Of a stretch of 64,000 nt of DNA, positions 2,051 to 64,000 are shown one piece after another. The position numbers and the translations under genes are program-made. Source of the DNA: an uncultured Alphaproteobacteria bacterium (GTDB taxonomy: Bacteria; Pseudomonadota; Alphaproteobacteria; RF32; CAG-239); contig CALXRP010000006.1 in the NCBI GenBank assembly GCA_944390885.1, forward strand, positions 2,216-66,215, written 5' to 3'. Numbering within the stretch: the stretch's first letter is position 1; each line of letters opens with the position of its first letter. Below the pieces are notes generated by a model that did no database searches, was not told the origin of the DNA, and worked only from the letters and a program-made list of their open reading frames with translations.

Positions 2051-2740
2051 ATGGAAAATGTAAAAGCTCACATACTGGTCGTTGACGACGATAAAAGATT
2101 GCGCTCGCTGTTGCAGCGCTTTCTGCGTGATAGCAGCTTTTATGTTTCAACCGCCAAAGATGCCGAGGAAGCCCGCCTCCAGCTCGGATATTATAAGTTT
2201 GATCTTCTGATTGTCGATATTATGATGCCGAACGAAAGCGGGCTGGAGTTTTTGTCGTCTTTGCGGCAGGAGAGTAATATCCCCGTCATTATGCTGACGG
2301 CAATGGGCGAGACGGCAGACCGCATTGCCGGTCTGGAGCAGGGGGCGGACGATTATCTGGCCAAGCCTTTTGAGCCTCAGGAACTGGTCTTGCGCATAAA
2401 AAGCATTTTGCGCCGCGCACCGGTTGAGAACAAAGAAAATGTTGAAAAGCTGAATTTGGGCTTGTGCGTTTATGATATGGTCAAAAAAGAGCTGGTCGGC
2501 AAACAGGGGCAGATTATTCACATTACGCCGCTGGAACAGTCGATGCTGAGCATTCTGGGGCAGAAGTCCGGACAGATTTTTACCCGGGAAAAACTGGCGG
2601 AAATCTTGGGTGCCGGCCAAAGTCCGCGCTCTATCGACGTTCAGATTACCCGACTGCGTAAAAAAATTGAGAAAGATTCAAAAAATCCGCGGTATTTGCA
2701 AACCGTCCGCGGCAAAGGTTATATGCTGCTGCCCGAATAA
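2051..2740 (+). CDS. ompR: OmpR-family winged-helix response regulator
   Basis: Receiver motifs (ILVVDDD, DLLIVDIMMP, LTAMGE...GADDYLAKPF) and an OmpR-type C-terminal DNA-binding domain. Near-colinear with E. coli OmpR by eye. Confidence 0.75.
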   Translation: MENVKAHILVVDDDKRLRSLLQRFLRDSSFYVSTAKDAEEARLQLGYYKFDLLIVDIMMPNESGLEFLSSLRQESNIPVIMLTAMGETADRIAGLEQGADDYLAKPFEPQELVLRIKSILRRAPVENKENVEKLNLGLCVYDMVKKELVGKQGQIIHITPLEQSMLSILGQKSGQIFTREKLAEILGAGQSPRSIDVQITRLRKKIEKDSKNPRYLQTVRGKGYMLLPE

Positions 2741-2768
2741 GGCGCAGGATTGGAGGAGGAGAAGATAA

Positions 2769-4127: not shown

Positions 4128-4143
4128 AGAAAGTTTTTGAACC

Positions 4144-24000: not shown

Positions 24001-24172
24001 TCTCTACCGCACTCTTCAATTCCGCCCAGGTCGAGACATGAATCTCTGCTGCCCAAACCGGCCTCAAAGCCAGCAAAACCGCCGGAATCAACACACTATA
24101 ATACAACTTCTTTCTAAACATCGTCCCTCTCCAAATTCTTTTGGATAAACTCATTAACGTATCATACCACAT
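21083..24172 (-). CDS. Autotransporter with Pmp-type (GGAI / FxxN) repeat passenger domain and C-terminal beta-barrel
   Basis: Signal peptide (..VLLALRPVWAAE). More than 10 GGAI(Y/D)N and F.GN/FYDN motifs. C-terminal ~280 aa of alternating amphipathic strands ending ..GVSYEF. Confidence 0.75.
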   Translation of the reverse strand: MWYDTLMSLSKRIWRGTMFRKKLYYSVLIPAVLLALRPVWAAEIHVSTWAELKSAVENGVDGAGAGGTVYLDKNIVVPDNSALTTAVPGIVIDGQGNSISNETGGNFLKFSSSTQTDLQIKNVVFENMGSVGSSTYAFPIRNNGTLDYINADFINNYATSLYSAFGGAIYNIGSISNITGDFTGNYAQADKGRAFGGAIDNSGSIGNITGDFTGNYAQADKGRAFGGAIDNSGSIGNITGDFTGNYTQSNTSDAFGGAIDNSGSIGNITGDFTGNYANGWGQGGAIYNSGIIGDITGDFSGNYAQSLATSKTAQGGAIYNGSNGTMSITNSNFYDNYARADNGDAFGGAIYNEGTMSITNSSFYDNHAQAGNEALGGAIYNEGTLTITADNGISEFSGNKVIHNDENDNKIEDSEAIYNLGSLTLDAVNNGIIRFDDKINGVYIDIEEGLSQNGRYDVVSDNAGGYYVYDGENLLGHLAWTDSGYVTRDYSDILPTEDVGAVLESLKNQGAQITQQGDDYHIVIDEQEVVFHKTEDGYVMQLPVSVSEFPGINITGDESGRVEFGNEVKEQALYLGGDVTAVMKSGSDFSTSGFNTFGGKISLIDEAINRFSPKELNLMSGVTRLGLDIDLANKTGDFITADTINLHGGSLFIDELNILSDETSPNTKVAVIDTKDGLSEQASMKKDIEAYGPIYKYDASYDKTTGEIEFINAGKAESGASGGDVSYGDLNPDVTTVPVSTNAGVYISQANVYREALGNTAMMPVSPAGLASGDVMAGRAWMRPFMSDEEVSLDNGPKVDNRVWGMLVGLDSRKVYFDNCWDGVFSGYVGTTGSRQKYDGVRINQKAAVLGASAMFKRGEFWTGLTANVMYGDGKAHTRFGTDDFHNLSTGFAMKAGRNFYLGDGFTLQPSFMGSYTYVKTSDYTTSAGVDIDSDAIQIVQLTPGLRLMWDVGNGWMPYIGYSYYWNLVDDSKVKANNVVLPEISVKPYSEYALGVIKEWDVVDSYFQLVYRNGGREGFDLQAGVSYEF
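23261..23710. repeat. Intragenic 90-nt tandem repeats (about 5 copies, two identical) encoding the 30-aa unit FGGAIDNSGSIGNITGDFTGNYAQADKGRA
   Basis: Copies at 23441..23530 and 23531..23620 are identical. Flanking copies at ~23351 and ~23621 are diverged. Confidence 0.8.
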
Positions 24173-43365: not shown

Positions 43366-43707
43366 TTACTGCCGGCTGTATGAAACGGAAAGATTTCCGC
43401 GTTTTACGACCAGATTATCGCTATCCAGTTTTTCAATCGGCAGCGTCTCGGAAAAATCAATAGTCTGCCGGTTGCCGATGCTTTTGCCTGATAAAACCAG
43501 CGTATTGCCTTTTTTCTCCCATTTTTCATAACGCAAAGTTGCCATATTAACCGATTCCGCACGCCCGTCCGGATATAGCATAAAACCCTGAACAACATCC
43601 GGCATTCCGGGAACCGGCTCAACCCATTTGCCTTCAATACCAGATTCGCTGCAGGCTTGCAAAAACAATAAGGCTGCAGCCAAAACAATTTTATTTTTCA
43701 TAAACAC
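43366..43707 (-). CDS. Small lipoprotein (113 aa), unknown function
   Basis: Lipobox LFLQA-C. Confidence 0.5.
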   Translation of the reverse strand: MFMKNKIVLAAALLFLQACSESGIEGKWVEPVPGMPDVVQGFMLYPDGRAESVNMATLRYEKWEKKGNTLVLSGKSIGNRQTIDFSETLPIEKLDSDNLVVKRGNLSVSYSRQ

Positions 43708-43802: not shown

Positions 43803-44384
43803 TTATTTCTTATATCCGAGGTCTTCCAGCCAACCGGAAATGCCGAAAGTACGGCTGCCGTAACCAACCCAGCCGTCGGCATTGACCTTGCAGCCTTTGC
43901 ACTGGGCCGTCATATCTTTAATGGTGTTCTGCACACCGCCGCCGCCGTGCGTAATAAACGGAATAACGGTTTTGCCGGACAAGTTATAACTGTCAAGAAA
44001 AGAGCTGACCTGCGGCGTAATCGTCCCCCACCAGTTCGGCGAGCCTAAAAAGACAACATCATATTTTGAAATATCGTCAACCTTGGTCAGCAGTTTCGGC
44101 CGATAGTTGTTTGCAATCTCCTGTTTGGCCTGAACGGTCATAGGGCGATATTCTTCCGGATAAGTCCCTTCGGTTTTGATCTCAAAAATATCACCGCCGA
44201 CTTTTTCATGAATAGCCTCGGCGACTTCTTTTGTATTGCCGCTGTAAGAATAATAAGCGACCAGAATTTTGGGCGTATCGGTTGTCATGGCCTTATTCTC
44301 CTGTTTCATTTGGGCATAAGTTTTGTAGGTTGTTGCTGCCAGAATGGCAAAAACGGCAGCGCCGAATATAATAAGTTTGTTCAT
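43803..44384 (-). CDS. Flavodoxin-like FMN-binding protein with N-terminal signal/anchor
   Basis: Flavodoxin signature (KILVAYYSYSGNTKEVAEAI), ..VVFLGSPNWWG.. and ..FITHGGGG.. Confidence 0.7.
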   Translation of the reverse strand: MNKLIIFGAAVFAILAATTYKTYAQMKQENKAMTTDTPKILVAYYSYSGNTKEVAEAIHEKVGGDIFEIKTEGTYPEEYRPMTVQAKQEIANNYRPKLLTKVDDISKYDVVFLGSPNWWGTITPQVSSFLDSYNLSGKTVIPFITHGGGGVQNTIKDMTAQCKGCKVNADGWVGYGSRTFGISGWLEDLGYKK

Positions 44385-44553
44385 TTATTTCTCCTTAGGT
44401 TATACGGATAAAATTATTTTGCAAAAATCTATCGGACCAAGTCAGTATATTTTTTAGAGCATACTCTAAGTCAAGACGTTTTTTTGAAAAAAATACATAA
44501 TTCTTTGATGGAAAATTTTGAATATCGGTGTTAAAAATAATCAGGAGAAAAAA

Positions 44554-44697
44554 GATGAAAAGGCGCGAATTCTTATTAAATTCCATATGGGCTGCCGGCG
44601 GGCTGGCCTGGCTGCTGAAAATGATTGAAGAAAACAAGAAAAACGGCCTTACTCTGCCGCAAGATGAAAGCGGCGCCCGCACAAACTTTATTCGTTA
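44554..44697 (+). CDS. 47-aa small ORF consisting essentially of a twin-arginine (Tat) signal peptide
   Basis: AGGAG RBS 7 nt upstream. MKRREFLLNSIWAAGGLAWLL.. (RR-x-F-L motif plus h-region). Overlaps the 3' end of tatC convergently by 10 nt. Not in the supplied ORF track (<60 aa). Confidence 0.3.
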
Positions 44698-45404
44698 GGC
44701 TTTATTCTGCGGGCAAAATATAACCCGCCTTCAAATAACCCGTAGGTCGGAAGCGCAAGCAGCAGCTGGCTCACAATGTCCGGCGGCGTCAAAAATGCCG
44801 CCACAACCAAAATCGCAATGAAGATATAGCGCCGCTTGCTCTTAACGGCCTCATAAGAGGCGATTCCCGAACGGATGAGCGAATAAGTTACCAGCGGAAA
44901 CTGAAACATAATGCCAAACGCTACCGCCAGCCATAAAGAAAGCCCGATAACGTTTGAAATGCCAAAGACGGCTTTGAGATCTTCGGACGAAAAACTGACA
45001 CCGAATTTGATAATCAACGGCAGGATAAGAAAAATGCAAAAAACAACGCCGGTGCAAAAGAGCAGGCTGGAAACCAGCACAATCGAGCGGATAAAACGCC
45101 GCTCGTTGTCATAAAGCGCCGGCAGAACAAAGTTCCAAACCTGCTTGGCAATATACGGAAAACAAACCGCCAGATCCAAAACAACGGCCAGTTTGATCTG
45201 CAAGATAAAAACTTCCGCCGGCGAAAAAAAGTTCAGCGTAACCGGGCTGTCCGCGATAATCGTTTTTATCAGCCAGTCCAGAAAATACGGTGCAATCAAA
45301 ATCATCGGCACCAACCCGACCGCAATGGCCGTCAGGCAGCGGATGAGCATCGAACGCAGCGCCTCCAGATGGGCAACCAGATTTTCGTCTTTGTCTTCTT
45401 CCAT
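44688..45404 (-). CDS. tatC: Sec-independent protein translocase TatC
   Basis: Six TM helices and TatC-conserved segments (..FFSPAEVFILQIKLAVVLDLAVCFPYI..QVWNFVLPALY..ERRF..). Confidence 0.85.
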   Translation of the reverse strand: MEEDKDENLVAHLEALRSMLIRCLTAIAVGLVPMILIAPYFLDWLIKTIIADSPVTLNFFSPAEVFILQIKLAVVLDLAVCFPYIAKQVWNFVLPALYDNERRFIRSIVLVSSLLFCTGVVFCIFLILPLIIKFGVSFSSEDLKAVFGISNVIGLSLWLAVAFGIMFQFPLVTYSLIRSGIASYEAVKSKRRYIFIAILVVAAFLTPPDIVSQLLLALPTYGLFEGGLYFARRIKPNE

Positions 45405-45634
45405 TATTGATCAGATTTTTCGTCTTTTTTAGCTTCTTTCTTTTCCTCTTCTGCCACGGCTTTTTCAACCGTATCTTTCAGCTCTTTGGCCTCGTTTTGC
45501 AAAGTTTCTTTGGCTTTTTTATATTCATATTGGGCTTTTCCGAGTGCTTTGGCCAGTTCAGGAATGCGCTTTCCGCCAAACAAAACCAAAACAACGACCA
45601 AAATTAAGATAATCTCCGTAACGCCTAATGACAT
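45404..45634 (-). CDS. tatA: Sec-independent translocase TatA/E
   Basis: [34 protein letters not shown].. (TM + hinge + amphipathic helix). Its stop overlaps the tatC start (ATGA). Confidence 0.8.
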
Positions 45635-45655: not shown

Positions 45656-46945
45656 TTATACAATCTGCTGTTCCTGAACCGGAAAAATGCTGATGGCCTT
45701 AACCGGACAAACACTGTGGCAAACACCGCAGCCGATGCAGCCGGCCGTGTCAATCTGCGGAAACTCGCCGTCTTTTTTGCTGATAACTCCGCGCGGACAT
45801 TCAGCAACACACAGGCCGCATTTGACGCAGGTTTCCTGATTAATGCTGGCAATGCCGATTCTTGTCTTTTGCTTTTCCTCCAAGGTGATTCTTCTGATTG
45901 CACCGGACGGACAAACTTCGGAACACTTGTGGCAGTCATAGTTGCAAAAACCGTTGCTGTAATCAATATGAACGGCAGCAAACTCGCTGTCGGCTTTTTT
46001 CAAAATCTTCATCGGACAGTTCTGCACACATAAATTGCAGTTCAGGCATTTGTTAACAAACTTCTCCGGATTATCGGCTCCGGCCGGCAAAATAACGCGC
46101 CGAACTTTTGCCGCAACACTTTTGCCCAGCTCAATTCCACCTTTGACGGCCGCCGCCAGAACAACCAAAGCCGCCCCGCCGATCAGAAATCTGCGCCGCG
46201 AAGGGCTGAAAGCGCTTTCTTCTTTTTTCTCTTTTGCCGAATGCCCGAAACAAATGGTGTCTTTCGGACATTGCGTCAGACATTTCAGACATTTGACGCA
46301 GGTCTCATTGTCCACGATATGATTTTTAAAGTCGATGCTGGCAGTCGGACAGCTTCGGGCACATAAGCCGCAGGAAACGCAGTTATCCGGTTTGATGTAA
46401 ATTTTGTTGTAAGAAACCTTGGAAATCAGTCCCAAAAGCGCACCGACCGGGCAGATTTCCGAACAAAACATCCGGCCTTTGAACCAGACCAGCAGGGCAA
46501 CGGCTATAACAACGCCGATACCGAGATAAGCGCAGCTGACTGCTGACCTGAAAAGCGTATATGGGTCAATCAGCCAGATAAGATATGCCGTTCCGCCGAT
46601 AAGGGCGCCGAAGACCACTGCCGCAATAAAATATTTATACGGATGTGATTTTCTGTGCAGCGGTTTTCTTTTGCGCCGGAATATAAAAGCTAAAAATTCC
46701 TGCATCAGGCCGAAAGGGCAGAGCGTTGAACAATAAATGCGCCCGAACAGCAACGTCAGCAGCAAAACGCCGGCAAACAACAGCACTGCTGCCAAAGAAA
46801 AATCAATAAACACACGTTGCGCCAGGGCGGTAACCTGTACGTCAAAAATCTTAACCGGATAAAAAATTCCGGTCAGCGCGGCTAACGACAACAAACCGAC
46901 AATAACAGCCGCAAAAATTCTGACATAACGATATGTTTTTTTCAT
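45656..46945 (-). CDS. Membrane-bound polyferredoxin: NapH-like N-terminal half fused to a NapG-like half carrying an internal twin-arginine motif
   Basis: TM helices with CSTLCPFG and CSEICPVG motifs plus 2 Cys4 clusters (NapH-like). Then SRRRFLIGGAALVVLAAAV (Tat-like) followed by 4 more CxxCxxCxxxCP clusters (NapG-like). Confidence 0.65.
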   Translation of the reverse strand: MKKTYRYVRIFAAVIVGLLSLAALTGIFYPVKIFDVQVTALAQRVFIDFSLAAVLLFAGVLLLTLLFGRIYCSTLCPFGLMQEFLAFIFRRKRKPLHRKSHPYKYFIAAVVFGALIGGTAYLIWLIDPYTLFRSAVSCAYLGIGVVIAVALLVWFKGRMFCSEICPVGALLGLISKVSYNKIYIKPDNCVSCGLCARSCPTASIDFKNHIVDNETCVKCLKCLTQCPKDTICFGHSAKEKKEESAFSPSRRRFLIGGAALVVLAAAVKGGIELGKSVAAKVRRVILPAGADNPEKFVNKCLNCNLCVQNCPMKILKKADSEFAAVHIDYSNGFCNYDCHKCSEVCPSGAIRRITLEEKQKTRIGIASINQETCVKCGLCVAECPRGVISKKDGEFPQIDTAGCIGCGVCHSVCPVKAISIFPVQEQQIV

Positions 46946-47017
46946 AAAAACTCCTTCCGTACGGATACAGACTGATAATTTAAATTATCTGCAATTTTGC
47001 AAGAACGCAAGGCAGAA

Positions 47018-47560
47018 TTATTTTATGCTCCTGCCGGCGTTATAAGCTTCCTCCATGGCAGGGCTGTTCTTTATATCGCCGATTTGCCATGCGCCTGTGC
47101 CGTAAATAACGCCTTTTTCTCTGGCGCCTTCCAGACAGTCTTCTGTAAAGCCGCGGAAACCTTCGAGCGTTTTTTCCATGTTGTCGCGGTTATCATCGGC
47201 GGCAGCAACGATAAAGTAAAAATCCTTATTGCTGATTTCCGTATAACGGGGAACGCTACGGTCAATCAGGGTTTTCATCTGTCCGTTCATCGTATAAAAA
47301 TAAACCGGCGTTGCCATAACGATAACATCGGCTTTGACCATCTTGTCCAGAATCTCTTCCATATCGTCTTTCTGAACACATTTGTGTGTGGTATTGCAGA
47401 CGCCGCAGCCCCGGCAGAAATTGATTTTCTTGCTGTTGATAAAAATCTTTTCAACATGGTTTCCGGCCTCTTCGGCGCCTTTGGCAAACTGGTCGCAGAG
47501 AGTGTCGGAGTTGCCGCCTTTGCGAAAACTGGCAGACAGGATAAGTACGTTTTTAGACAT
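47018..47560 (-). CDS. Iron-sulfur flavoprotein (Isf-like, flavodoxin/NADPH-dependent FMN reductase fold)
   Basis: ..LILSASFRKGGNSD.. FMN-binding N-terminus. Compact Cys motif CRGCGVC-x5-C (C-x2-C-x2-C-x5-C) typical of Isf. Confidence 0.7.
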   Translation of the reverse strand: MSKNVLILSASFRKGGNSDTLCDQFAKGAEEAGNHVEKIFINSKKINFCRGCGVCNTTHKCVQKDDMEEILDKMVKADVIVMATPVYFYTMNGQMKTLIDRSVPRYTEISNKDFYFIVAAADDNRDNMEKTLEGFRGFTEDCLEGAREKGVIYGTGAWQIGDIKNSPAMEEAYNAGRSIK

Positions 47561-47699
47561 TATATCTCCTTTCTGTTGTTAATAACGTCTGTTTTGCGAT
47601 TCTGAAAATATCATAAACTTTAGAGTTAACTCGAGGTCAACTATTTTCTTGACATTTATCCTGATTTTTTTACACTTCCCGAATATGGAGGGCAAAACA

Positions 47700-48134
47700 A
47701 TGGGATATTCAATCGGACAAGTATCAAAAAAAATGGGTCTGACCGCCCATACGCTGCGTTATTATGAAAAAGAAGGGCTTCTTCCGTTTGTCAAAAAGAA
47801 CGGCGCCGGCCTGCGGGTGTTTTCCGATAACGACCTCGGCTGGCTGGAACTGATAGAATGCCTGAAAGGCACCGGCATGACGCTGAAGGGCATAAAACAA
47901 TACATCGATTGGTTTCAGGAGGGCGATTCGACCTTAAAACAACGTCTGGAAATGTTTAAGGAACAAAAAGTCAAATTAAAAGAACAAATGGCCCGCCTTG
48001 AAAAATATATGGAAAGAATAGATTATAAAATCGCTTATTACAACGAAGTCATAGCCCACGGCGAAAAAGGCATTTGGGACAGAAATCCCGGCCTCAAAGC
48101 CGCCAGAGAACGCATTTACGGCAAAAGAGGATAA
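47700..48134 (+). CDS. MerR-family transcriptional regulator
   Basis: GGAGGG RBS. MerR HTH (MGYSIGQVSKKMGLTAHTLRYYEKEGLL) and a coiled-coil dimerisation helix. Divergent from the isf operon. A 10-bp perfect palindrome GAGTTAACTC sits at 47623..47632 in the shared intergenic region. Confidence 0.8.
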   Translation: MGYSIGQVSKKMGLTAHTLRYYEKEGLLPFVKKNGAGLRVFSDNDLGWLELIECLKGTGMTLKGIKQYIDWFQEGDSTLKQRLEMFKEQKVKLKEQMARLEKYMERIDYKIAYYNEVIAHGEKGIWDRNPGLKAARERIYGKRG

Positions 48135-49844: not shown

Positions 49845-50273
49845 TTAATACCCGCCGACCGAAGTTGGAACATAATTGCCGAAAGCGTCATAACCGTAAC
49901 CGATTCGGTCTTTCCCGACCGCAGTCGGCACATAGTTGCCCTGGGCGTTGTAACCGTAATTTATTTTTTCTGTTCCGACGGCCGTCGGAACATAATCTCC
50001 CTGCGGATTATACCCGTAATTGATTTTTTTGTTGCCGACCGCGGTGGGAACATAATCTCCCTGAGCATTGTAACCGTAGTTTATTTTTTTCTTTCCGACA
50101 GCGGTAGGCACATAGTCGCCTTGGGCGTTATAACCATATTCAACCTTTTCTCCGTCAATCGAAACCGGCACCCAGTCGCCCTGGGCATTGTAACCGTATT
50201 GAATGTTTCCGGCCCAAGCAGTTACCGGCAAAATCAGAATTGAAAAACATAAGATAAAAATAAAACGGGCCAT
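49845..50273 (-). CDS. Small secreted protein made of 7 tandem 18-aa repeats (consensus INYGYNAQGDYVPTAVGK)
   Basis: Signal peptide MARFIFILCFSILILPVTAWA followed only by repeats. Underlying 54-nt DNA tandem repeats span ~49860..50230. Confidence 0.55.
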   Translation of the reverse strand: MARFIFILCFSILILPVTAWAGNIQYGYNAQGDWVPVSIDGEKVEYGYNAQGDYVPTAVGKKKINYGYNAQGDYVPTAVGNKKINYGYNPQGDYVPTAVGTEKINYGYNAQGNYVPTAVGKDRIGYGYDAFGNYVPTSVGGY

Positions 50274-55861: not shown

Positions 55862-58800
55862 ATGATAACTGGGACTGAAAGATTATTATATCTCGGAATA
55901 GATGTGGGTTCAACGACGGTTAAGGCCGTTGTTATTGATGACAAAGAAAATGTTTTGTTTTCCACCTATCAGCGCCATATGTCGGAAGTTCGCAAAAAAA
56001 TCATTTCCATACTGAATGAAATCATCAAAAAATTTCCCGATACCCGTTTTAAAATAAGTCTGACCGGTTCCGGTGCCCTGTCACTGTGTACCAAACTGAA
56101 CGTTCCTTTTGTGCAGGAAGTCATCGCCTCCAGCCTGAGCATAAAAAAGCAGATTCCCGATGCCGACGTTATTATCGAACTGGGCGGGGAAGACGCCAAA
56201 CTGACTTTTCTGACCAGCGGAACGGACTTGCGGATGAATGAAACCTGTGCCGGCGGTACGGGGGCTTTTATCGACCAGATGGCCTCTTTCCTAAACCTTG
56301 ACGTCAGCGAAATGGATGAACTGGCGCTGCAATATAAAAATATTTATCCGATTGCCTCGCGCTGCGGCGTTTTTGCCAAAACGGATATTGTGCCGCTGAT
56401 TAACGAAGGCTGCACAAAAAGCGATATTGCCATGTCGATTATGCAGGCGGTTGTCAACCAGTTTATCGGCGGTTTGGCACGCGGGCGGGACATTACCGGT
56501 AAAATTGTGTTTCTGGGCGGTCCGCTGGCTTTTATCAAATCTCTGCGGCAATGCTTTATCGAAACTTTGAAATTAGAGGCTGAAAACGCTGTCCTGCCGG
56601 AGCGGGCCGAGCTTTTTGTGGCTTTGGGAGCGGCCTTGCATGCGCTGGGAGGGTCGGAAGAACCGATAGAATTAAAGAGCTTTGCTGCGGCATTGGATAA
56701 ACTGGATGAAGAAAACGAAATTCAAAAACTGCCGCCGCTTTTTAAAGACAAACGGGAAAAAGAAGAATTTGATAAACGACACAGCCGCACCAATGTCCGG
56801 ACTTTTCCTCTGGAAGAATACGAGGGTGATGCCTGGTTCGGCATTGACAGCGGCTCCACCACTATTAAAGCTGTTTTGATAGATGCTCAGGATCGGCTGC
56901 TTTATTCCCATTACGGGCCAAACAAGGGAGATCCGTTTCATCAGGCCTTAAATATTTTGCAGGAAATATATTCCCGGGCCAAACCCGGATTAAAAATCAA
57001 GGCCGCGGCGGCGACCGGATACGGCAGTGCGCTGTTGAAAGCCGGTTTAAAACTGGATATTGATGAGGTGGAAACGGTAGCGCATTGTCAGGCCGCAGCG
57101 TTTTTTGCTCCGAATGCCAGCTTTGTTCTCGACATCGGCGGACAAGACATAAAATGTATGAAGCTGAAAAACGGCGTCATAGAAAAAATCGGGCTGAACG
57201 AGGCCTGTTCTTCCGGTTGCGGATCTTTTATTGAGAATTTTGCCAAATCTCTGAATATGAGTATGCCGGAATTTGTCGAGGCGGCGCTCAAAGCCAAACA
57301 CCCGGTCGATTTGGGCACGCGCTGCACGGTATTTATGAACTCTAAGGTCAAACAGGCGCAAAAAGACGGTGTTTCCGTCGGAGATATTGCCGCCGGTCTG
57401 TCTTATTCCGTAATCAAAAACGCCTGTTACAAGGTCATTAAAATCACGGACGTTTCCGAATTAGGCGATTGCATCGTTGCGCAGGGGGGCTCGTTTTTAA
57501 ACGACGCGCTGCTCCGGGCCTTGGAAATCCAGGTCGGCAAAACGATTGTCCGGCCGGGGCTTGCCGGTCTGATGGGCGCTTTCGGCGCGGCGCTGATTGC
57601 CCGAAAACGCGGGCCGGAAAACGGAGTTAAAACCGGTCTTATTACCCCGGAAGAAATCAAAAATCTGAACATCAAAACCACTAACGCCAGATGTCAGGGA
57701 TGTACCAACCATTGTATGCTGACAATCACCGATTTCGGCAATAAAAAGAAGTTTATTTCCGGCAATAAATGTGAAAGAGGCGCCGGCAAAGTCAAAAATA
57801 ACAAAATCAACCTCTGCGCATACAAATATGCCCGCTTGTTTGATCATTACAAACCCCTTCCGAAAGAAAAAGCCGTTCACGGCACGGTCGGCATTCCGCG
57901 GGCATTGAATATGTACGAGAACTATCCGCTGTGGTTCACACTTTTCACACATTTGGGCTTTCGGGTAGAACTGTCGTCGCCATCTTCCAAAAAAATGTTT
58001 TTCAGCGGCTATGCCTCCATTCCGTCGCAAACGGTCTGCTATCCGGCCAAGATGGCGCACGGACATATTATGGATTTGTTGAATAAAAACGTAGATTGCA
58101 TCTTTTTCCCGTGCATTCCACGGGAGCAAAAAGAATTTCCGTCGCAGGCCGACAGCTATAATTGTCCGGTCGTAACCGGTTATCCGGAACTGCTGTCTAA
58201 AAATATTTCCGAGCTGGCATCGGGAGAGGTGCCGTTTTATGCACCGTTTTTGCCGCTGGATGAAAAGATTTTGGCCAAACGGCTGAAGTCTATACCGCTG
58301 TTTGCCGGCTTTTCTTCTTTGCAGTTAAGGATGGCTGTCAAACGTGCTTTTGTGGAGTTGCGAAGGTTTAAAAAAGACATCAGAAACGCCGGTATTGAAG
58401 CCGTCGAGAAATTGAAGAAAAACGGCGAATACGGCATTGTCCTCGCCGGCCACCCGTATCATATCGACCCGGCTATCAACCACGGGATCCCTGAGCTTAT
58501 CAATGCCTGCGGCTTGTCTGTTCTGACAGAAGATTCCGTTGCTCACCTGCGGCCAAATCCGGAGGCGCTGCGGGTTCGCGACCAATGGACCTATCACTCC
58601 CGCTTATATCGGGCAGGTACTTTTGCTGCCGATAATAACAATCTTGCAATTTTGCAGCTGGTGTCTTTCGGTTGCGGCGTCGATGCCATTACTGCAGATC
58701 AGCTGGAAGAAATTGTAACCTCCAAAGAACAGCTTTATGCTCAGATAAAAATTGACGAGGGCGATAATCTGGGGCCGGCAAAGATTCGGATTCGTTCCTT

Positions 58801-60100
58801 ACTGGCTGCGTTGAAAGATCGCCAGCAGGAAAAGAAAAAATCTGAAAAAACGGTATCTGAAAAGGTTCCGGTCTTTACTGCCGAGATGAAGAAAACCCAT
58901 ACGATTCTCATACCGCAGCTTTCGCCGACGCATTTTCAGTTTATGGAAACGATATTTGCCAGTGAAGGCTATAAAGTCGCCCAGCTTCCGAAAGTTGATA
59001 AAGACGCGATAGAACTTGGCTTGAAACATGTCAATAATGACGCTTGTTTCCCGGCAATTGTTGTCATCGGCCAGCTGTTACAGGCAATCCGGAAGGGTGA
59101 TTACGATACCGACAAGATTGCTCTGCTGATTTCTCAGACCAACGGCGGCTGTCGGGCGTCAAACTATGCCGGACTTTTGCGCCGGGCTCTGATTCAATGT
59201 AATATGGGACACATTCCGGTCATTACCATGAATGTCAGCGGCAATGTCGACAGTCCGGGCTTTATCCCCGGCCGCAAGATTCTGCTGCGTATGATTATGG
59301 CCGGCTGTTACGGCGACGCCCTGATGCGGATGACGCACCGGGTTTCCCCTTATGAAAAAGTCAAAGGCAGCACGCAGAAACTGGTGGACAAATGGGTTGA
59401 AATCATCAAGAAAAATCTGCAAAGCGGCAATGTCATTACGTTCAATCTGAATATGCTCCGGATGATTCGGGAGTTTGATAAGCTGCCGCTCAGAGATATA
59501 AAGAGAAAGCCCCGTGTCGGCCTGGTCGGCGAAATCCTGCTGAAATACCATCCGGATGCCAACAATCAGGCAGCCCGGATAATAGAAGAAGAGGGCGGAG
59601 AAGCCGTTATTCCTGATTTGATGGACTTTATGCTCTATGGGTTTTATGACCATATTTACAATTACAAATATCTGCAGGGCTCTTGGAAAGCTTATGCCGT
59701 CAGCCTTTCGAGCATAGCCGCACTGGAACTGTGCCGCGGAACAATGCGGCTGGGCTTGAAACTTTCCAAACGGTTTGAACCGCCGGTATTTTTCAAGAAT
59801 TTGCGAAAGAAAATCCGCGGTTTGTTGTCTTTGGGGCATCAGACAGGTGAAGGATGGCTGCTGACTGCCGAGATTGTCGAACTGCTGGAAGCCGGTGTTG
59901 ACAATGTTTTGTGCATGCAGCCTTTTGGCTGTCTGCCAAACCATATTACCGGAAAGGGCTTTATCAAAGAAATCAAAAAACGCTTTCCGAAAGCCAACAT
60001 CATCGCAGTTGATTATGATCCCGGTGCCAGTGAAACCAACCAGATTAACCGTATCAAGCTGATGATGTCTATTTCCAAACAAAAGCAGAAAGGAAATTAA
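55862..60100 (+). CDS. 1412-aa fusion protein: two BadF/BadG/BcrA/BcrD-type (HgdC-like activase) ATPase domains plus a 2-hydroxyacyl-CoA-dehydratase-like (DUF2229-type) C-terminal region
   Basis: ASKHA phosphate-1 motifs LGIDVGSTTVKAVVID (aa ~11) and FGIDSGSTTIKAVLID (aa ~325). Cys motifs NETCAGGTGAFI and NEACSSGCGSFI. Cys-rich C-terminal ~800 aa. Confidence 0.75.
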   Translation: MITGTERLLYLGIDVGSTTVKAVVIDDKENVLFSTYQRHMSEVRKKIISILNEIIKKFPDTRFKISLTGSGALSLCTKLNVPFVQEVIASSLSIKKQIPDADVIIELGGEDAKLTFLTSGTDLRMNETCAGGTGAFIDQMASFLNLDVSEMDELALQYKNIYPIASRCGVFAKTDIVPLINEGCTKSDIAMSIMQAVVNQFIGGLARGRDITGKIVFLGGPLAFIKSLRQCFIETLKLEAENAVLPERAELFVALGAALHALGGSEEPIELKSFAAALDKLDEENEIQKLPPLFKDKREKEEFDKRHSRTNVRTFPLEEYEGDAWFGIDSGSTTIKAVLIDAQDRLLYSHYGPNKGDPFHQALNILQEIYSRAKPGLKIKAAAATGYGSALLKAGLKLDIDEVETVAHCQAAAFFAPNASFVLDIGGQDIKCMKLKNGVIEKIGLNEACSSGCGSFIENFAKSLNMSMPEFVEAALKAKHPVDLGTRCTVFMNSKVKQAQKDGVSVGDIAAGLSYSVIKNACYKVIKITDVSELGDCIVAQGGSFLNDALLRALEIQVGKTIVRPGLAGLMGAFGAALIARKRGPENGVKTGLITPEEIKNLNIKTTNARCQGCTNHCMLTITDFGNKKKFISGNKCERGAGKVKNNKINLCAYKYARLFDHYKPLPKEKAVHGTVGIPRALNMYENYPLWFTLFTHLGFRVELSSPSSKKMFFSGYASIPSQTVCYPAKMAHGHIMDLLNKNVDCIFFPCIPREQKEFPSQADSYNCPVVTGYPELLSKNISELASGEVPFYAPFLPLDEKILAKRLKSIPLFAGFSSLQLRMAVKRAFVELRRFKKDIRNAGIEAVEKLKKNGEYGIVLAGHPYHIDPAINHGIPELINACGLSVLTEDSVAHLRPNPEALRVRDQWTYHSRLYRAGTFAADNNNLAILQLVSFGCGVDAITADQLEEIVTSKEQLYAQIKIDEGDNLGPAKIRIRSLLAALKDRQQEKKKSEKTVSEKVPVFTAEMKKTHTILIPQLSPTHFQFMETIFASEGYKVAQLPKVDKDAIELGLKHVNNDACFPAIVVIGQLLQAIRKGDYDTDKIALLISQTNGGCRASNYAGLLRRALIQCNMGHIPVITMNVSGNVDSPGFIPGRKILLRMIMAGCYGDALMRMTHRVSPYEKVKGSTQKLVDKWVEIIKKNLQSGNVITFNLNMLRMIREFDKLPLRDIKRKPRVGLVGEILLKYHPDANNQAARIIEEEGGEAVIPDLMDFMLYGFYDHIYNYKYLQGSWKAYAVSLSSIAALELCRGTMRLGLKLSKRFEPPVFFKNLRKKIRGLLSLGHQTGEGWLLTAEIVELLEAGVDNVLCMQPFGCLPNHITGKGFIKEIKKRFPKANIIAVDYDPGASETNQINRIKLMMSISKQKQKGN

Positions 60101-60148
60101 GCGGAAACGTGGTAAAGCATATTAAAACTTCTTTGCGACATTTGCGCA

Positions 60149-60790
60149 TCATTGGTTAGGCAATATCTCAAACATCAGATATTTGAACAGCGGTACTCTG
60201 CCCGGATTATAATCCGTCCAACATTTTTCACAGTTGTAAGTTCCTTTTAACTCAAGCTTGTTTCTGCGAAATTTGTAATTAGGATTTTTATAAAAATCTT
60301 CTTTCCATTCAAGCTTACCATGCAAAGTTTTTTGTTTTTCATTAATAGAAAAAGCATATCCCAAACTTTGTTTGCAAGGCAGTTTTTCGTTCCAGTAATT
60401 GTTATCATTGGTAAGAAGTATAGCATAACTGGATGATCCTTTTTCTGTATACTTTTCCAGCCGTTGAATATCAGCACAAAAATCGTATCGGCCATTGTCC
60501 TGTGCGGCATGGGTTTTTAGTTCCAGCTTAACACCGTGGCAATAAACCTCCTTCTTTTTGGTTTTATATTTTAGTTCAATAAAATGTTTCTTCCCGTCAT
60601 ATATGACACATAAATCAATATAATTAATTTTTTTCTCGGTTGGTTGAGGATATTCCAAAATAACTTCTGCTCTGTTTCCGAGTTTTTCTTTTATTTTCCA
60701 GGCCAGACAGAATTGAAAATCTGCTTCTGAACAAAAAATGGTGTTTTCATCTCCAAAAGATTTCATGATATCGATTAATATTTTTTTCAT
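60149..60790 (-). CDS. Small (213-aa) protein with a PD-(D/E)xK-like motif (putative nuclease/effector)
   Basis: E..(ILEYP).. YIDLCVIYDGKKHFIELKYK gives a D / E-x-K arrangement on consecutive predicted strands. Its start abuts the stop of the WYL regulator gene. AT-rich. Confidence 0.4.
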   Translation of the reverse strand: MKKILIDIMKSFGDENTIFCSEADFQFCLAWKIKEKLGNRAEVILEYPQPTEKKINYIDLCVIYDGKKHFIELKYKTKKKEVYCHGVKLELKTHAAQDNGRYDFCADIQRLEKYTEKGSSSYAILLTNDNNYWNEKLPCKQSLGYAFSINEKQKTLHGKLEWKEDFYKNPNYKFRRNKLELKGTYNCEKCWTDYNPGRVPLFKYLMFEILPNQ

Positions 60791-60791
60791 T

Positions 60792-61745
60792 TTAGCTCTT
60801 CCAATTTGTAGGCTTAATCACTTTTACATGTTCACCCCAAGTGTAAAGATGCCAGTCCATTTCCAATCTTCCGCCGGCTTTGAATTTGACGGTCAGACTT
60901 CCATCGTCGTTTTTATGCATTATCTGCGTCGGATGAAAAATATATAAGGAGGCTTCATCAGCAGCTTCTTTGTCAAACAGCCACTCCACCTCAAAAGGTT
61001 CTTCGTGATATGCACCAAAAGATAATTCTGCATATTTTTTCAAATCAAACCCTTTTGTCGGCACAAAAGGAATATCCAAAATTTCAACCGCTTTGATATT
61101 GCTTAAAATAAAATTATGCACTTCATCTCCAAAATAACCATCACTATGATGAGCTACCAAATAATGATTCCTTTCGCCATATAAAAAACCGTATGGGTCA
61201 AGAATGTTTGAGCTGGTTTTTCCTGTTTTTTTATTCAAATAAGTAATTTTAATTTGATGACATTCCAAAATAGCCTGTTTGATGATTGATATAATTTGGT
61301 TATCTATTTTTAATTTTGGTCCCGGGCGGCAAATAAAACCTTCAGCCTCCAATAAAGCCTCAGCATCCGGTTCTATCCGACGAAAAACATCTGTTTTTAT
61401 ACTCGCTTTAATTTTATTAATAATGTTTTCAAAAACTTCTTTTTTATCTTTCAGTTGCTTGTTTTCAAACAAAGATGCCGCCATTTCCAAAACCGATAAT
61501 TCTTCGGCCGAAAATTGAATAAAATCTTTTAATGTTCCTTGTGGAATATACCAACGTTTTGTATTATTATCGCCGATAATTTCTTCCGTTTGCGGAAAGC
61601 GGGTCGTGATCATATTACGCATACGCTCAGCAGTACGCCTGGAAACTCCGAATTTGGCAGAAATTTCATTTAAGGAAACACCTTCACGGGTTGCCTGCAT
61701 CCAAATTGCCAAATCCAACAAATCATAAGTTTTCTCATAGGGCAT
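60792..61745 (-). CDS. HTH-WYL-WCX transcriptional regulator (YafY/PafBC/BrxR-like)
   Basis: N-terminal wHTH (..LNEISAKFGVSRRTAERM..), central WYL-type domain (..ERNHYLVAHHSDGYFGDEVHNFILSNIKAVEIL..) and a C-terminal extension. Confidence 0.7.
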   Translation of the reverse strand: MPYEKTYDLLDLAIWMQATREGVSLNEISAKFGVSRRTAERMRNMITTRFPQTEEIIGDNNTKRWYIPQGTLKDFIQFSAEELSVLEMAASLFENKQLKDKKEVFENIINKIKASIKTDVFRRIEPDAEALLEAEGFICRPGPKLKIDNQIISIIKQAILECHQIKITYLNKKTGKTSSNILDPYGFLYGERNHYLVAHHSDGYFGDEVHNFILSNIKAVEILDIPFVPTKGFDLKKYAELSFGAYHEEPFEVEWLFDKEAADEASLYIFHPTQIMHKNDDGSLTVKFKAGGRLEMDWHLYTWGEHVKVIKPTNWKS

Positions 61746-61784
61746 ATTACCGTTCTTTCATATATTTTGTGTTGTCTCTCTTTA

Positions 61785-62954
61785 TCATTTTGCAATGCAT
61801 TTTAACAAATCGATATCTGGTATTTTGTCCGTATTAAATTTTTCAGCAAAGAAAATTATGTTATGGCCGGTTATGTTCAAATCTGTATTTTCATATTGAG
61901 CTTCTATGTTTTTTGCTTTATATACTGCCAAACATTGATGTTTTTGCTGCAAACTTGGAAAATTTATATTACAATACCACCATAACTCATCATAAAATTT
62001 CCCCTTCTCGACTCTCATACGATTAGTTATTCCTACATTTAAAAACTCATTGTGTGGTATAGCAATATACTCATTCCAGCTTTGTGGATTATGAATAGAC
62101 TTTCTGGGAAAATTTTTTTTAAATAATTTATCAATATATTCTTTCAAATTTTTTACACATTTTTTATAGCTGTCATAAAATTGGGAATCTTCCGGAGTGT
62201 ATGCATGCAGCATCCAAATAGCTGAAGGATATTTTTGAAATACCTTAAAATCAAAGTTTGCATTTTTTACCTTCTCAGCATAATCGTATAAAACTTTTTC
62301 AGAAAGAAGCTCATAGATATTCAAATAATTTGCGCCATGTCCATACAATTGCGCATAAATTGAAGATACATAATATCGCACAAAATCATAACTTTCGTTT
62401 TGTATTTTATCTTCAATAGTTGCAACCAAAATTTTTGCTATATCTCCCCATATCATTTGGATCCACTGATTATTTCCAGGATTTTCCTTATTGACGGTGA
62501 GATATATCTTTGTAACATTTTTTTTGCTTTTTAAATAAGCATCATATTTTTTTAACTGACCTTTTCCGAGCGTACTGCTTGTTTTGGCTTCAATGACTAT
62601 GATAAAAGGTTTGTCTTTGTCGGTTATCCCTTCAATGTATATGTCAAAACGTCCTTTTTTTGGGGGATCAAAATAGAACTCGGGGTAAACATTGTAACAT
62701 GTTATCTGATTTGAATAATCGATACCTTTTACATAATGCAGCAAACGTTTTAAAATTTCTCCCCCAAGACCATGAGGAGCCTTAGCATCTAACAAATAAG
62801 CCAAAGTACGAGTATAGGCCGTTTCCAATCGTCCGTTTTCCAAAAAAGAAAATAATCCCTGATGCAAATTAACAGGATGCGGATATTTTTTATCTTTAAT
62901 AATATTCTGATAAGCTTCAACGGCCTGTTTTTTCAATTCCTCAAAGTCAATCAT
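61785..62954 (-). CDS. 389-aa protein with a PD-(D/E)xK nuclease-like core
   Basis: ..ETAYTRTLAYLLD.. then GRFDIYIEG......FIIVIEAKTSS (D ... E-A-K). Remainder unassignable. Confidence 0.45.
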   Translation of the reverse strand: MIDFEELKKQAVEAYQNIIKDKKYPHPVNLHQGLFSFLENGRLETAYTRTLAYLLDAKAPHGLGGEILKRLLHYVKGIDYSNQITCYNVYPEFYFDPPKKGRFDIYIEGITDKDKPFIIVIEAKTSSTLGKGQLKKYDAYLKSKKNVTKIYLTVNKENPGNNQWIQMIWGDIAKILVATIEDKIQNESYDFVRYYVSSIYAQLYGHGANYLNIYELLSEKVLYDYAEKVKNANFDFKVFQKYPSAIWMLHAYTPEDSQFYDSYKKCVKNLKEYIDKLFKKNFPRKSIHNPQSWNEYIAIPHNEFLNVGITNRMRVEKGKFYDELWWYCNINFPSLQQKHQCLAVYKAKNIEAQYENTDLNITGHNIIFFAEKFNTDKIPDIDLLKCIAK

Positions 62955-62963
62955 TGTTTCTCC

Positions 62964-64000
62964 TTATAAAAAGCCAATTTTCCTACTGACGGGAGCTTTG
63001 TTTTGCTGCTCTGTTTCAAGCATTTTAATAAGCTCCTCTTTATCTCCCGTAAGCCCTAAAATCTCAGCCTTATCTTTTACGACAACAAAGTCTCCGGGGG
63101 TCAACAGATTAAGATGAGATAAATCTATATTAGGAATATTAAAGAAATGCTTAAAAGCGGCAGAACACTGTTCTGAAGTCATATAATCATATTTTACTTT
63201 AAAGGTAAAACGTCGTAAAGATGCCTTATCAAGCGTATCCATTAAGTTTGTTGTACAAACAAAGGGATAAGTATGTTTTTCCATCTGGGTAAGCATTTCA
63301 TTTACTTGGGTAATTTCCCAACTTCTTTGAGCACTGCTTCTGTCTTGCAAAAAACTGTCAGCTTCGTCAAATATAAGCAGGGCTCCTCGTTGCTTGGCTT
63401 CTTCAAAGGCCTTGGCAATGTTTTTTTCAGCTTCGCCAACAAATTTATCTAATAAATCAGAACATCTTTTCTTAATGATCGGAAGTCCCATTTGTTTTCC
63501 TAAATATTGAGCAAAAGCAGATTTTCCTGTCCCGGATGCCCCATAAAGACAAAGTGAAAAATTAAGTTTGCCGAGAGTAGTCAGTCGCTCAGCTAAAATT
63601 TCCAGACTAATATCTGTATTTAGAAGTTTAGGATTAAAATCTATTTCAAAATCAGAGACATTAGTTTTAAGTTTTTCTCCGTTATTATAAGCTTCTTGTA
63701 GCACGTCAAGCGTTTGTTCCACTTCTGCAATGTTTCCGTTTATCAAGCGAGTCGCTTTTGTTGCCGTATTGATAAATGAAGGGGATAATGAATATTTGCG
63801 AGCAAAGGTCTCAGCTGTCTTTTTGTTGCAGGGAAGGTTATTTTCCTGCAGGCTTTTTTGCCACATCTCTTCTATTACCGTTTTGGACGGACGGGTAAAA
63901 TTTATAGCATAGCTAAAACGGCGCAAATAAGCTTTATCCATGGTATGAATATCATTAGAAATCCAAATCGTCGGCTTGGCATTATTTTCCAGCAGACGGT
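62964..64000 (-). CDS. Tandem AAA+ ATPase, 5' end outside window (second AAA domain complete)
   Basis: Walker A GASGTGKS, Walker B LLIFDEADSF, sensor-1 TTN and Arg-finger region DKASLRRF. The frame stays open upstream of the annotated Met to the window edge and encodes ..PTIWISNDIHTMDKAYLRRF, the sensor/Arg-finger end of a preceding AAA domain. Confidence 0.7.
   Translation of the reverse strand, partial: RLLENNAKPTIWISNDIHTMDKAYLRRFSYAINFTRPSKTVIEEMWQKSLQENNLPCNKKTAETFARKYSLSPSFINTATKATRLINGNIAEVEQTLDVLQEAYNNGEKLKTNVSDFEIDFNPKLLNTDISLEILAERLTTLGKLNFSLCLYGASGTGKSAFAQYLGKQMGLPIIKKRCSDLLDKFVGEAEKNIAKAFEEAKQRGALLIFDEADSFLQDRSSAQRSWEITQVNEMLTQMEKHTYPFVCTTNLMDTLDKASLRRFTFKVKYDYMTSEQCSAAFKHFFNIPNIDLSHLNLLTPGDFVVVKDKAEILGLTGDKEELIKMLETEQQNKAPVSRKIGFL

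Follow-up and report, generated by a model that had tools for sequence, protein, structure and literature searches.

A polyferredoxin of the NapH-NapG fusion type with a predicted internal twin-arginine signal-anchor, encoded in a likely operon with tatA and tatC behind a putative MerR-type promoter

Introduction

Membrane proteins with internal twin-arginine (RR) motifs following an even number of transmembrane (TM) helices were sought in a genome search by Tooke et al. (2017, eLife 6:e26577, PMC5449189). The search uncovered a family of polytopic polyferredoxins, which are inserted dually by the Sec and Tat systems and were described as a fusion of NapH and NapG. For the protein of delta proteobacterium MLMS-1 (Q1NSB0), reporters fused behind transmembrane domain 5 (TMD5) were exported in an RR- and Tat-dependent manner, and whether Tat takes over from Sec was shown to depend on how weakly hydrophobic the last helix is and on the positive charges behind it (PMC5449189). 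The paper also names, citing Keller et al. 2012, actinobacterial three-TM Rieske proteins as the earliest known cases of dual Sec/Tat insertion: the early helices are left to Sec, and Tat receives an internal RR helix of low hydrophobicity along with the folded iron-sulfur (FeS) domain. Here we describe a polyferredoxin gene of this kind, pfd, and its surroundings in a stretch of 64,000 nucleotides from an uncultured alphaproteobacterium (GenBank assembly GCA_944390885.1, contig CALXRP010000006.1, positions 2,216 to 66,215), subsequently designated the window. All coordinates refer to the window unless a related locus is named.

The genes treated here adjoin a gene for a regulator of the MerR family. 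Within this family, the members of the NmlR/AdhR subfamily sense through a conserved Cys54 and have no metal-binding region, and the promoters activated by MerR-family members have a 19-20-bp spacer with a quasi-palindromic operator (PMC5001606).

Results

Architecture of the polyferredoxin

The gene pfd and the parts of its product, PFD, are located as follows:

45656..46945, minus strand: polyferredoxin gene pfd, 429 aa, a single open reading frame (ORF).
46220..46945, minus strand: NapH-like half, residues 1-242, with TM1-4, two CX3CP motifs and two predicted cytoplasmic [4Fe-4S] motifs (NapH profile PRK09477, 4e-26; hydropathy; helices of the AlphaFold2 (AF2) model).
46133..46201, minus strand: predicted internal Tat signal-anchor, S249-RRRFLI plus TM5 at residues 253-271 (translation, alignment, hydropathy, NapG profile).
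45656..46132, minus strand: NapG-like domain, residues 272-429, with four [4Fe-4S] motifs, predicted to be extracytoplasmic (motifs; NapG profile, 3.2e-15).

Judged by its translated sequence, PFD is a polytopic polyferredoxin in which a NapH-like membrane module is fused to a NapG-like four-cluster module. A basic N-terminus (MKKTYRYVR) stands ahead of four hydrophobic helices, which hydropathy places at residues 10-28, 49-67, 107-125 and 135-153. The NapH-like half further contains two CX3CP motifs (CSTLCP at C72 and CSEICP at C161) and CxxCxxCxxxC motifs at C189 and C216. In the middle of the protein, S249-R250-R251-R252-F-L-I directly precedes TM5 and is followed by FLIGGAALVVLAAAV; the segment S249-RRRFLI-GGAALVVLAAAV joins the NapH-like half to four further cluster motifs at C300, C334 (a CX3CX2CX3CP variant), C373 and C403. 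A preliminary description of this DNA, made from the letters and their ORFs, had listed the four co-oriented genes, the TM, CX3CP and cluster motifs, the RR motif and a palindrome, all of which were recovered by re-reading and profile searches, and had offered a NapH-NapG gene fusion among its explanations. Indeed, the NapH profile aligns to residues 60-242 and the NapG profile, from its position 3 onwards, to residues 242-422; the latter alignment indicates that the internal RR segment would be homologous to the Tat signal of NapG.

TM5 is weakly hydrophobic, with a simple position-independent sum of the Hessa scale of +2.1 versus -0.2 to -3.6 for TM1-4, and it is followed by the positive charges K268, K275, K280, R282 and R283. 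Together with an RR motif present in 40/40 homologues (see below), these properties agree with the suggestion that the segment reads as a Tat signal, and the fifth helix of PFD is predicted to be an uncleaved internal twin-arginine signal-anchor; as part of the overall explanation given in the Discussion, we hold this to be probable. In the AF2 model, one long helix (248-281) connects the two ferredoxin regions, and the helices match the positions obtained from hydropathy. Searches of solved structures by sequence and by Foldseek with the AF2 model yielded only generic ferredoxin-domain matches (MvhB, FwdF, RnfB), the polyferredoxins MvhB and FwdF being the closest solved chains for the NapG-like domain; a solved structure like the NapH-like membrane part was found in neither search, and the matches gave no clue to function. 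A ferredoxin of the CcoG/FixG/RdxA type was considered and rejected for PFD, as Fer4_18 scored 21 bits versus a cutoff of 27 and FixG_C gave no match.

The features of the class of Tooke et al. are present in PFD, i.e. four helices before the RR motif with a predicted N-in orientation, RR before TM5, a weak TM5 with a positive tail and four C-terminal [4Fe-4S] motifs. The MLMS-1 protein likewise has four TM helices followed by a conserved RR motif right before a TMD5 of low hydrophobicity, positive charges after it and four [4Fe-4S] motifs on the outer side. It is larger, its TMD5 being located at residues 338-359 as opposed to 253-271 for TM5 of PFD, and three rather than two clusters are predicted on its cytoplasmic side. 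PFD, which we assign to the class by shared architecture and the NapH and NapG profile matches rather than by alignment with Q1NSB0, is to all appearances a new representative of a described class with a published architecture. Since architecture and dual Sec/Tat biogenesis were described and tested by Tooke et al. (2017), the earlier wording of an unusual arrangement and possibly a novel membrane redox module was too strong. Tat- and RR-dependent translocation of the C-terminal domain of PFD would be predicted by analogy.

Conservation and integrity of the reading frame

A database search with PFD returned 1097 homologues; almost all of the top 120 have a length of 403-437 aa, and almost all of them align over their full extent. 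Conservation was assessed in an alignment of 40 sequences, which comprises two clades and reaches down to 30% identity. No exception to R250 and R251 occurs in the 40/40 sequences (RR also in 9/9 of a smaller alignment), nor to 27 of the 28 cysteines of the cluster and CX3CP motifs. The remaining one, C379, is kept in at least 90% and lies in the NapG-like domain (15/16 cluster cysteines invariant), all CX3CP and cluster cysteines of the NapH-like half being invariant. TM5 is less hydrophobic than TM1 in 40/40 homologues, and the tail after it carries a net positive charge.

A missed frameshift or stop had also been proposed, in which case the single ORF would be an assembly or sequencing artefact that collapsed separate napH-like and napG-like genes. 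However, the identical ORF (100%) is present on an independently assembled Logan contig, an ORF with 91% identity occurs in a metagenome-assembled genome (MAG), over 1000 full-length homologues show the single ORF, and the linker and the RR segment are kept in the alignments. These observations refute the artefact, in favour of which nothing was found and to which we attach practically no probability. Among genome records, gut MAGs labelled as uncultured (alpha)proteobacteria come closest, and the related loci are largely from human-gut assemblies. Thousands of PFD homologues carry no annotation other than "4Fe-4S binding protein".

The protein identity of PFD to its counterpart in the closest MAG (locus L001, 6001-7287) is 91%, and that of the neighbours MetRS, MerR, Isf, TatA and TatC is 97-99%; nucleotide identities are alike across PFD and its neighbours (91-95%). 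The substitutions are spread along PFD and spare the cysteines, which suggests that its non-ligand residues may be under relaxed or diversifying selection.

Linkage of pfd to tatA and tatC

According to the window sequence and profile searches, the gene order on the minus strand is isf-like flavoprotein gene, pfd, tatA, tatC. The genes flanking pfd are:

47018..47560, minus strand: isf-like iron-sulfur flavoprotein, FMN_red fold, 180 aa (Pfam FMN_red, 3.6e-22).
45404..45634, minus strand: tatA, 76 aa (Pfam TatA_B_E, 3.5e-16; TIGR01411, 55.6 bits, cutoff 53.9).
44688..45404, minus strand: tatC, 238 aa (Pfam TatC, 1.9e-55; TIGR00945, 164.9 bits, cutoff 132.7).

TatA and TatC both score above the curated family cutoffs. 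The gap between isf and pfd measures 72 nt and contains the ribosome-binding site (RBS) GGAAGGAG, that between pfd and tatA 21 nt, and the tatC start overlaps the tatA stop by 1 nt (TAATG). RBS-like sequences precede every start, and no terminator-like site was detected in the 72-nt gap by the terminator scan. Thus, the four genes are likely to form one operon, as the preliminary description had supposed from the short gaps. An Rfam scan of the whole window matched no RNA family, and therefore no riboswitch is assigned to these genes; a repeat search of the locus found only short repeats at chance level.

The Isf-like protein contains the compact motif C49-x2-C52-x2-C55-x5-C61 (CX2CX2CX5C), as read from its translation, a motif of the type characteristic of iron-sulfur flavoproteins, and no curated family match for Isf was obtained with it. 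It has no signal peptide and is therefore predicted to be cytoplasmic; Tat signals are present on Isf-like relatives in loci L015 and L018, but not on the copy in the window.

To assess whether pfd and tatAC belong together, 89 homologous loci were fetched and collapsed at 90% PFD identity to 62 clusters, and linkage was counted in clusters with at least 43% PFD identity and at least 1 kb of downstream sequence. In 22/26 of these non-redundant clade loci, tatA-tatC is located directly downstream of pfd on the same strand; adjacent tat genes were found in 0/18 of the distant PFD group. All but one of the linked loci come from a single gut-associated clade. The genes that flank the pfd-tatA-tatC trio vary by lineage (glycosyltransferases, Lar genes, or MerR-isf), and the order is retained in L081, where PFD identity is 32% and TatC identity 28%. 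Because the flanks differ between lineages and the 32%-identity homologue keeps the order, pfd-tatA-tatC gives the impression of an operon maintained by selection in this clade rather than of inherited order alone; it is not a family-wide arrangement.

The alternative is that the RR helix represents a plain fifth Sec-inserted helix or no membrane segment at all, and that tatAC is a housekeeping copy adjacent to pfd by inherited order. It would fit with the origin of the linked loci from a single clade, by which shared ancestry contributes to synteny, and with the four clade loci that lack linkage. However, the residues around the RR motif vary while RR itself is retained without exception in homologues of as little as 30% identity, and the segment aligns to the Tat signal of NapG. 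Moreover, a domain with four FeS clusters cannot pass unfolded through Sec, and inherited order sits poorly with the changing flanks of the trio and with the divergent L081 locus. Taken together, this alternative appears very unlikely to us.

Apart from PFD, no other candidate with an RR signal was found in the 64-kb window. A dedicated translocase with PFD as its sole Tat substrate was considered and dropped as a general claim, as relatives encode several enzymes with Tat signals in the same clusters.

The MerR-family regulator and its candidate promoters

The regulator gene, two candidate promoters and the gene behind the second of them are located as follows:

47700..48134, plus strand: MerR-family regulator, NmlR/AdhR type, 144 aa (Pfam MerR_1, 1.5e-21; NmlR is the best NCBIfam match).
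47610..47640, minus strand: P1, putative MerR-type promoter of isf-pfd-tatA-tatC, with -35 TTGACC (47640-47635), a 19-bp spacer (TCGAGTTAACTCTAAAGTT) and -10 TATGAT (47615-47610) (sequence reading, motif search).
44444..44474, minus strand: P2, second putative MerR-type promoter, with -35 TTGACT, a 19-bp spacer (TAGAGTATGCTCTAAAAAA, dyad TTAGAG-N4-CTCTAA) and -10 TATACT (motif search; motif at 44474-44454).
43803..44384, minus strand: gene for a 193-aa Flavodoxin_4-family protein that starts with a signal peptide and may be a periplasmic redox partner (Pfam Flavodoxin_4, 2.9e-28).

The only cysteine of the 144-aa regulator is Cys54, and C-terminal metal-binding cysteines are absent. Because of this single cysteine, the lack of metal-binding cysteines and the best match to NmlR, we infer that the regulator senses electrophile or redox stress via a thiol and not a metal. 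The control by a MerR-type regulator of "metal or redox" that had been suggested is thereby kept as to the MerR-type promoter, and narrowed to thiol electrophile/redox sensing; the metal part was given up. The mechanically called merR ORF starts at TTG 47649 (17 additional residues), and the 144-aa call on the identical contig and the helix-turn-helix alignment favour ATG 47700, which is the most likely start. A sigma-70-like promoter, TTGACA-16-TACACT, is located at 47649-47676 on the plus strand beside the operator, which suggests divergent, adjacent promoters as in NmlR loci.

P1 and P2 were found by sequence reading and pattern search, the promoter scanner covering spacers of 16-18 nt only. 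The spacer of P1 contains the palindrome GAGTTAACTC at 47623-47632, and an AAGGAG RBS follows the -10. This palindrome, which had attracted attention before as a perfect one of 10 bp in the divergent promoter region, is present, but a 10-bp palindrome in 139 bp is by our estimate expected about 0.1 times by chance and is not significant on its own. It forms the core of a longer motif, TTGACN-TNGAG-N4-CTCTAA. When this motif was searched over the 64 kb with up to two mismatches, exactly 2 occurrences were obtained versus 0.05 expected, both on the minus strand. The second one is P2, which was absent from the preliminary description and lies 90 nt upstream of the start of the flavodoxin-like gene, the gene after tatC.

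Both sites have counterparts in relatives. P2 is kept in L001 with one mismatch, and the P1 intergenic region is 98.6% identical to L001 versus ~94% for the flanking genes. The P1-type motif with a -10-like hexamer at fixed 19-bp spacing was detected at 24 sites in 19 related loci. It precedes homologues of the Flavodoxin_4 protein in L027, L031, L033, L035, L041 and L047, and is further found ahead of genes for a Tat-signal aldo-keto reductase that ends in a Fer4 domain (AKR-Fer4), for Isf-like and DUF362 proteins with Tat signals, and for a cupin with a signal peptide. These data support control of isf-pfd-tatAC by a MerR-type promoter, the pairing of regulator and operator being putative.

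Exported candidate partners

The flavodoxin-like protein encoded in the window and its 12 homologues (13 in total) all have signal-peptide-like N-termini, at least 5 of them with clear AxA-type sites. The homologue in L042, encoded directly upstream of pfd, starts with the Tat signal MKRRHFLFGG. A strong terminator is located 3' of the flavodoxin gene in the window (43785-43752). Searches of the PDB with the Isf-like and the flavodoxin-like protein returned only uncharacterised "putative flavoprotein" entries.

In relatives, the gene upstream of pfd frequently encodes a redox enzyme with a Tat signal. This holds for 18/20 assessable clusters of the distant group (17 DUF362, 1 AKR-Fer4) and for at least 13/25 assessable loci of the alpha clade (10 AKR-Fer4; 3 DUF362, Isf or flavodoxin). 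No gene for AKR-Fer4 or DUF362 is present in the 64-kb window, whose lineage, with an upstream isf that lacks a signal peptide, appears as a derived variant. DUF362 belongs to the same Pfam clan as the LarA nickel-pincer enzymes (PMC11770544); beyond this relationship, literature searches on DUF362 function and on exported or periplasmic flavodoxins yielded nothing relevant.

Several further observations concern these partners. The distant loci are L006 and L071-L100, with DUF362 carrying a Tat signal immediately upstream in 17/20; the observation further concerns L028, L056 and L005. In L098, a Bacteroidota contig, the DUF362-PFD pair adjoins cytochrome bd genes. In L015 (3780-7233) and in L043 and L046 (~2240-4980), the MerR-type promoter is separated from pfd by LarB/LarC/LarE-like genes and a gene for a histidine-rich membrane protein (217-247 aa), which hints at a nickel-pincer cofactor in the exported partner of those relatives; neither Lar-like genes nor the histidine-rich protein were found in the window. 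A 47-aa ORF, MKRREFLLNSIWAAGGLAWLL...GARTNFIR (44555-44698, plus strand), is convergent with and overlaps the 3' end of tatC, and was also called on the identical contig. Over its first 20 residues it is similar to the Tat signals of AKR-Fer4 of relatives (65% over 20 aa), and at its end to the C-terminal tail of the Tat-exported Isf-like protein of L015, these matches being statistically weak (E 5e-4 to 0.14). About 150 nt around this ORF are missing from L001. It may be an internally deleted relic of a gene for a Tat-exported partner. Downstream of the flavodoxin gene, past the terminator, a Lipocalin_3 lipoprotein with the lipobox LQAC is encoded (43366-43707, minus strand), which is conserved only in the closest relative.

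The neighbourhood bears on what PFD might serve. One possibility is an ordinary quinol dehydrogenase of the NapGH, NosGH or MauMN type that is merely fused and serves a periplasmic terminal reductase encoded elsewhere, the regulator and the flavoproteins being unrelated to it. NapGH is the textbook function of this module pair (as cited in PMC5449189), and no profile matches whole domains of PFD better than those of NapH and NapG. However, PFD scores far below the equivalog cutoffs for NapH (91.8 versus 234 bits with PRK09477; 84.2 versus 213 bits with TIGR02163) and NapG (56 versus 269 bits with PRK09476), the NapG-like module being fused and not a separate soluble polypeptide. No molybdopterin oxidoreductase, cytochrome c, nap or nos gene was found among the 40 ORFs scanned in the window, the genes called on the identical contig within 10 kb of pfd and the 120-aa ORF list of the window. 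For these reasons, i.e. the missed cutoffs and a genomic context without nap, membership of PFD in NapH or NapG was rejected. Furthermore, the pfd promoter is of a stress type common to flavoprotein genes, and the constant neighbours in relatives are Tat-exported AKR-Fer4, DUF362 and Isf, not Nap or Nos. We therefore consider an ordinary quinol dehydrogenase improbable.

A second possibility concerns the direction of flow: electrons might run in reverse, from periplasmic donors to the quinone pool, or PFD might have a maintenance role, in which an exported cofactor protein is reduced or matured, as proposed for NosR/NapH-type proteins or MauMN. The architecture does not set the direction of electrons, and the LarB/LarC/LarE cofactor genes and the putative metal transporter in operons of relatives fit with maturation or cofactor handling. 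On the other hand, the putatively co-regulated partners have reductase-type folds (AKR, FMN reductase, flavodoxin), control of the NmlR/AdhR type fits with electrophile detoxification, and no donor of the periplasmic dehydrogenase type was seen in the 64-kb window. Reverse flow or maintenance consequently receives a low probability in our assessment.

Other genes in the window

Flagellar genes are present in the window, including flaF, which is known mainly from Alphaproteobacteria. A secreted protein of 142 aa (49845-50273, minus strand) consists of a signal peptide followed by six tandem repeats of ~20 aa (I-N-Y-G-Y-N-A-Q-G-D-Y-V-P-T-A-V-G) and belongs to no recorded family. The region 60001-64000 has a G+C content of ~34.5%, compared with ~45% elsewhere, and carries genes for a WYL/WCX regulator, a PD-(D/E)XK nuclease and an AAA ATPase; it looks like an acquired, possibly defence-related island. 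A 1412-aa BcrAD/BadFG + DUF2229 "CoA-enzyme activase" protein (55862-60100, plus strand) suggests an anaerobic radical dehydratase system, and a 1029-aa autotransporter is encoded at 21083-24172 (minus strand).

Discussion

Our best explanation, which we regard as probable although by no means secure, is that PFD is a NapH-NapG fusion with an internal Tat anchor that acts as an inducible conduit feeding periplasmic reductases. Its assembly is modelled by analogy to the tested MLMS-1 protein. TM1-4 would be inserted co-translationally by Sec/YidC, and Sec insertion would break off at TM5 because of its weak hydrophobicity and the positive charges that follow. The C-terminal domain would then fold in the cytoplasm and take up four [4Fe-4S] clusters, before TatAC moves it across the membrane, leaving TM5 as anchor. 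Upon electrophile or redox stress, the membrane electron conduit would be built together with its own translocase. Like NapGH, the conduit could be quinol-linked, and/or it could be fed from the cytoplasmic side via Isf. Electrons would be delivered to exported flavo- and FeS reductases, for which no NAD(P)H is available outside the cytoplasm; for such reductases, a polyferredoxin with clusters on both faces is therefore a plausible electron supply. In the window, the exported partner would be the flavodoxin-like protein, and in relatives the Tat-exported AKR-Fer4, Isf-like or DUF362 proteins. The physiological role of PFD proposed here derives from gene association and co-regulation.

Several points weigh against this explanation. 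What is said here on Tat dependence, membrane topology, cofactors and the direction in which electrons flow is prediction. The hydrophobicity sum is simpler than the full deltaG predictor, and the confidence of the AF2 model is only moderate (pLDDT 74.9, pTM 0.51). NapH-type proteins are not known to contain haem, so that the passage of electrons across the membrane is conjectural, as is the role of the cytoplasmic clusters even in genuine NapH. The regulator reaches 105.7 bits with the NmlR model NF041849, below the 175-bit cutoff (next family, 49 bits). As to the gene neighbourhood, 4/26 clade loci are without tatAC beside pfd, the upstream gene in the window encodes an Isf without signal, unlike in most relatives, and the only exported candidate partner in the window has a Sec-type signal. 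The proposed tie between flavodoxin and pfd is drawn solely from the shared promoter motif and recurrent synteny.

A broader formulation would be that a thiol-sensing regulator of the NmlR/AdhR type switches on a self-contained periplasmic reduction pathway, comprising its own TatAC, PFD as electron supply and exported NAD(P)H-free flavo- and FeS enzymes, and that NapH-NapG fusions are generally dedicated donors for a large set of uncharacterised Tat-exported reductases in gut and environmental bacteria. In this generality we put it forward as a tentative and rather doubtful extension.

The internal twin-arginine helix is not new in itself; PFD adds a good natural case to a class for which experimental validation exists in only a few proteins. 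The value of the locus lies in its context: a translocase operon directly behind one of its own predicted dual-targeted substrates, a putative regulator-operator pair that would tie the tat operon to an exported flavoprotein and, across phyla, the pairing of polyferredoxins with uncharacterised Tat-exported DUF362, AKR-Fer4 and Isf-like enzymes. The pfd-tatAC operon trio, the putative NmlR-type two-promoter regulon and the cross-phylum pairing of PFD with Tat-exported enzymes appear not to have been reported. The sections of Tooke et al. (2017, PMC5449189) at hand contain no mention of tatAC linkage, of a MerR-type promoter or of paired Tat-exported partner enzymes. For the genes annotated as "4Fe-4S binding protein", which number in the thousands, the locus offers a hypothesis open to testing, and it suggests how periplasmic reductases of anaerobic gut bacteria might obtain electrons without pyridine nucleotides.

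Comparison with known systems

The actinobacterial three-TM Rieske proteins (Streptomyces coelicolor Sco2149) follow the same biogenesis principle as proposed for PFD, but differ in having an unrelated fold and cofactor ([2Fe-2S]) and another number of helices, and in being part of the bc1 complex. The Isf of Methanosarcina thermophila combines an FMN_red/flavodoxin-like fold with a compact CX2CX2CX4-7C motif, and the Isf-like protein of the window shares both the fold and the compact cysteine motif. We know of no described Tat-exported version of Isf such as those encoded in related genomes.

The regulator resembles NmlR of Haemophilus influenzae and AdhR of Bacillus subtilis (PMC5001606) in being short, in lacking a sensor domain and in possessing the conserved Cys54. 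Of the DNA-contacting residues, R20 and K24 are kept, whereas F21 is replaced by Y. As in these systems, the regulator gene is divergent from its putative target, and the 19-bp spacer carries an inverted repeat abutting the -35. The targets differ: adhC/estD-type genes in the case of NmlR/AdhR, and here a polyferredoxin-Tat operon together with exported flavoproteins.

A further comparison is with the menaquinol dehydrogenase NapGH of E. coli and Wolinella succinogenes, with the related NosGH and MauMN, whose domain content and predicted topology correspond to those of PFD. In NapH there are 4 TM helices along with two CX3CP motifs and two clusters on the cytoplasmic side; NapG brings a Tat signal and four clusters, and PFD matches both profiles. 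NapGH consists of two polypeptides, whereas PFD is a single one, in which the Tat signal is kept as a predicted internal anchor. A nap, nos or mau context was not found around PFD in the 64-kb window, and its promoter is of the stress-regulator type. PFD is NapGH-like in design but not NapGH, and its membrane half is NapH-like without being a NapH orthologue. The supply of exported reductases by PFD, as proposed here, would be analogous to the service that NapGH provides to NapAB.

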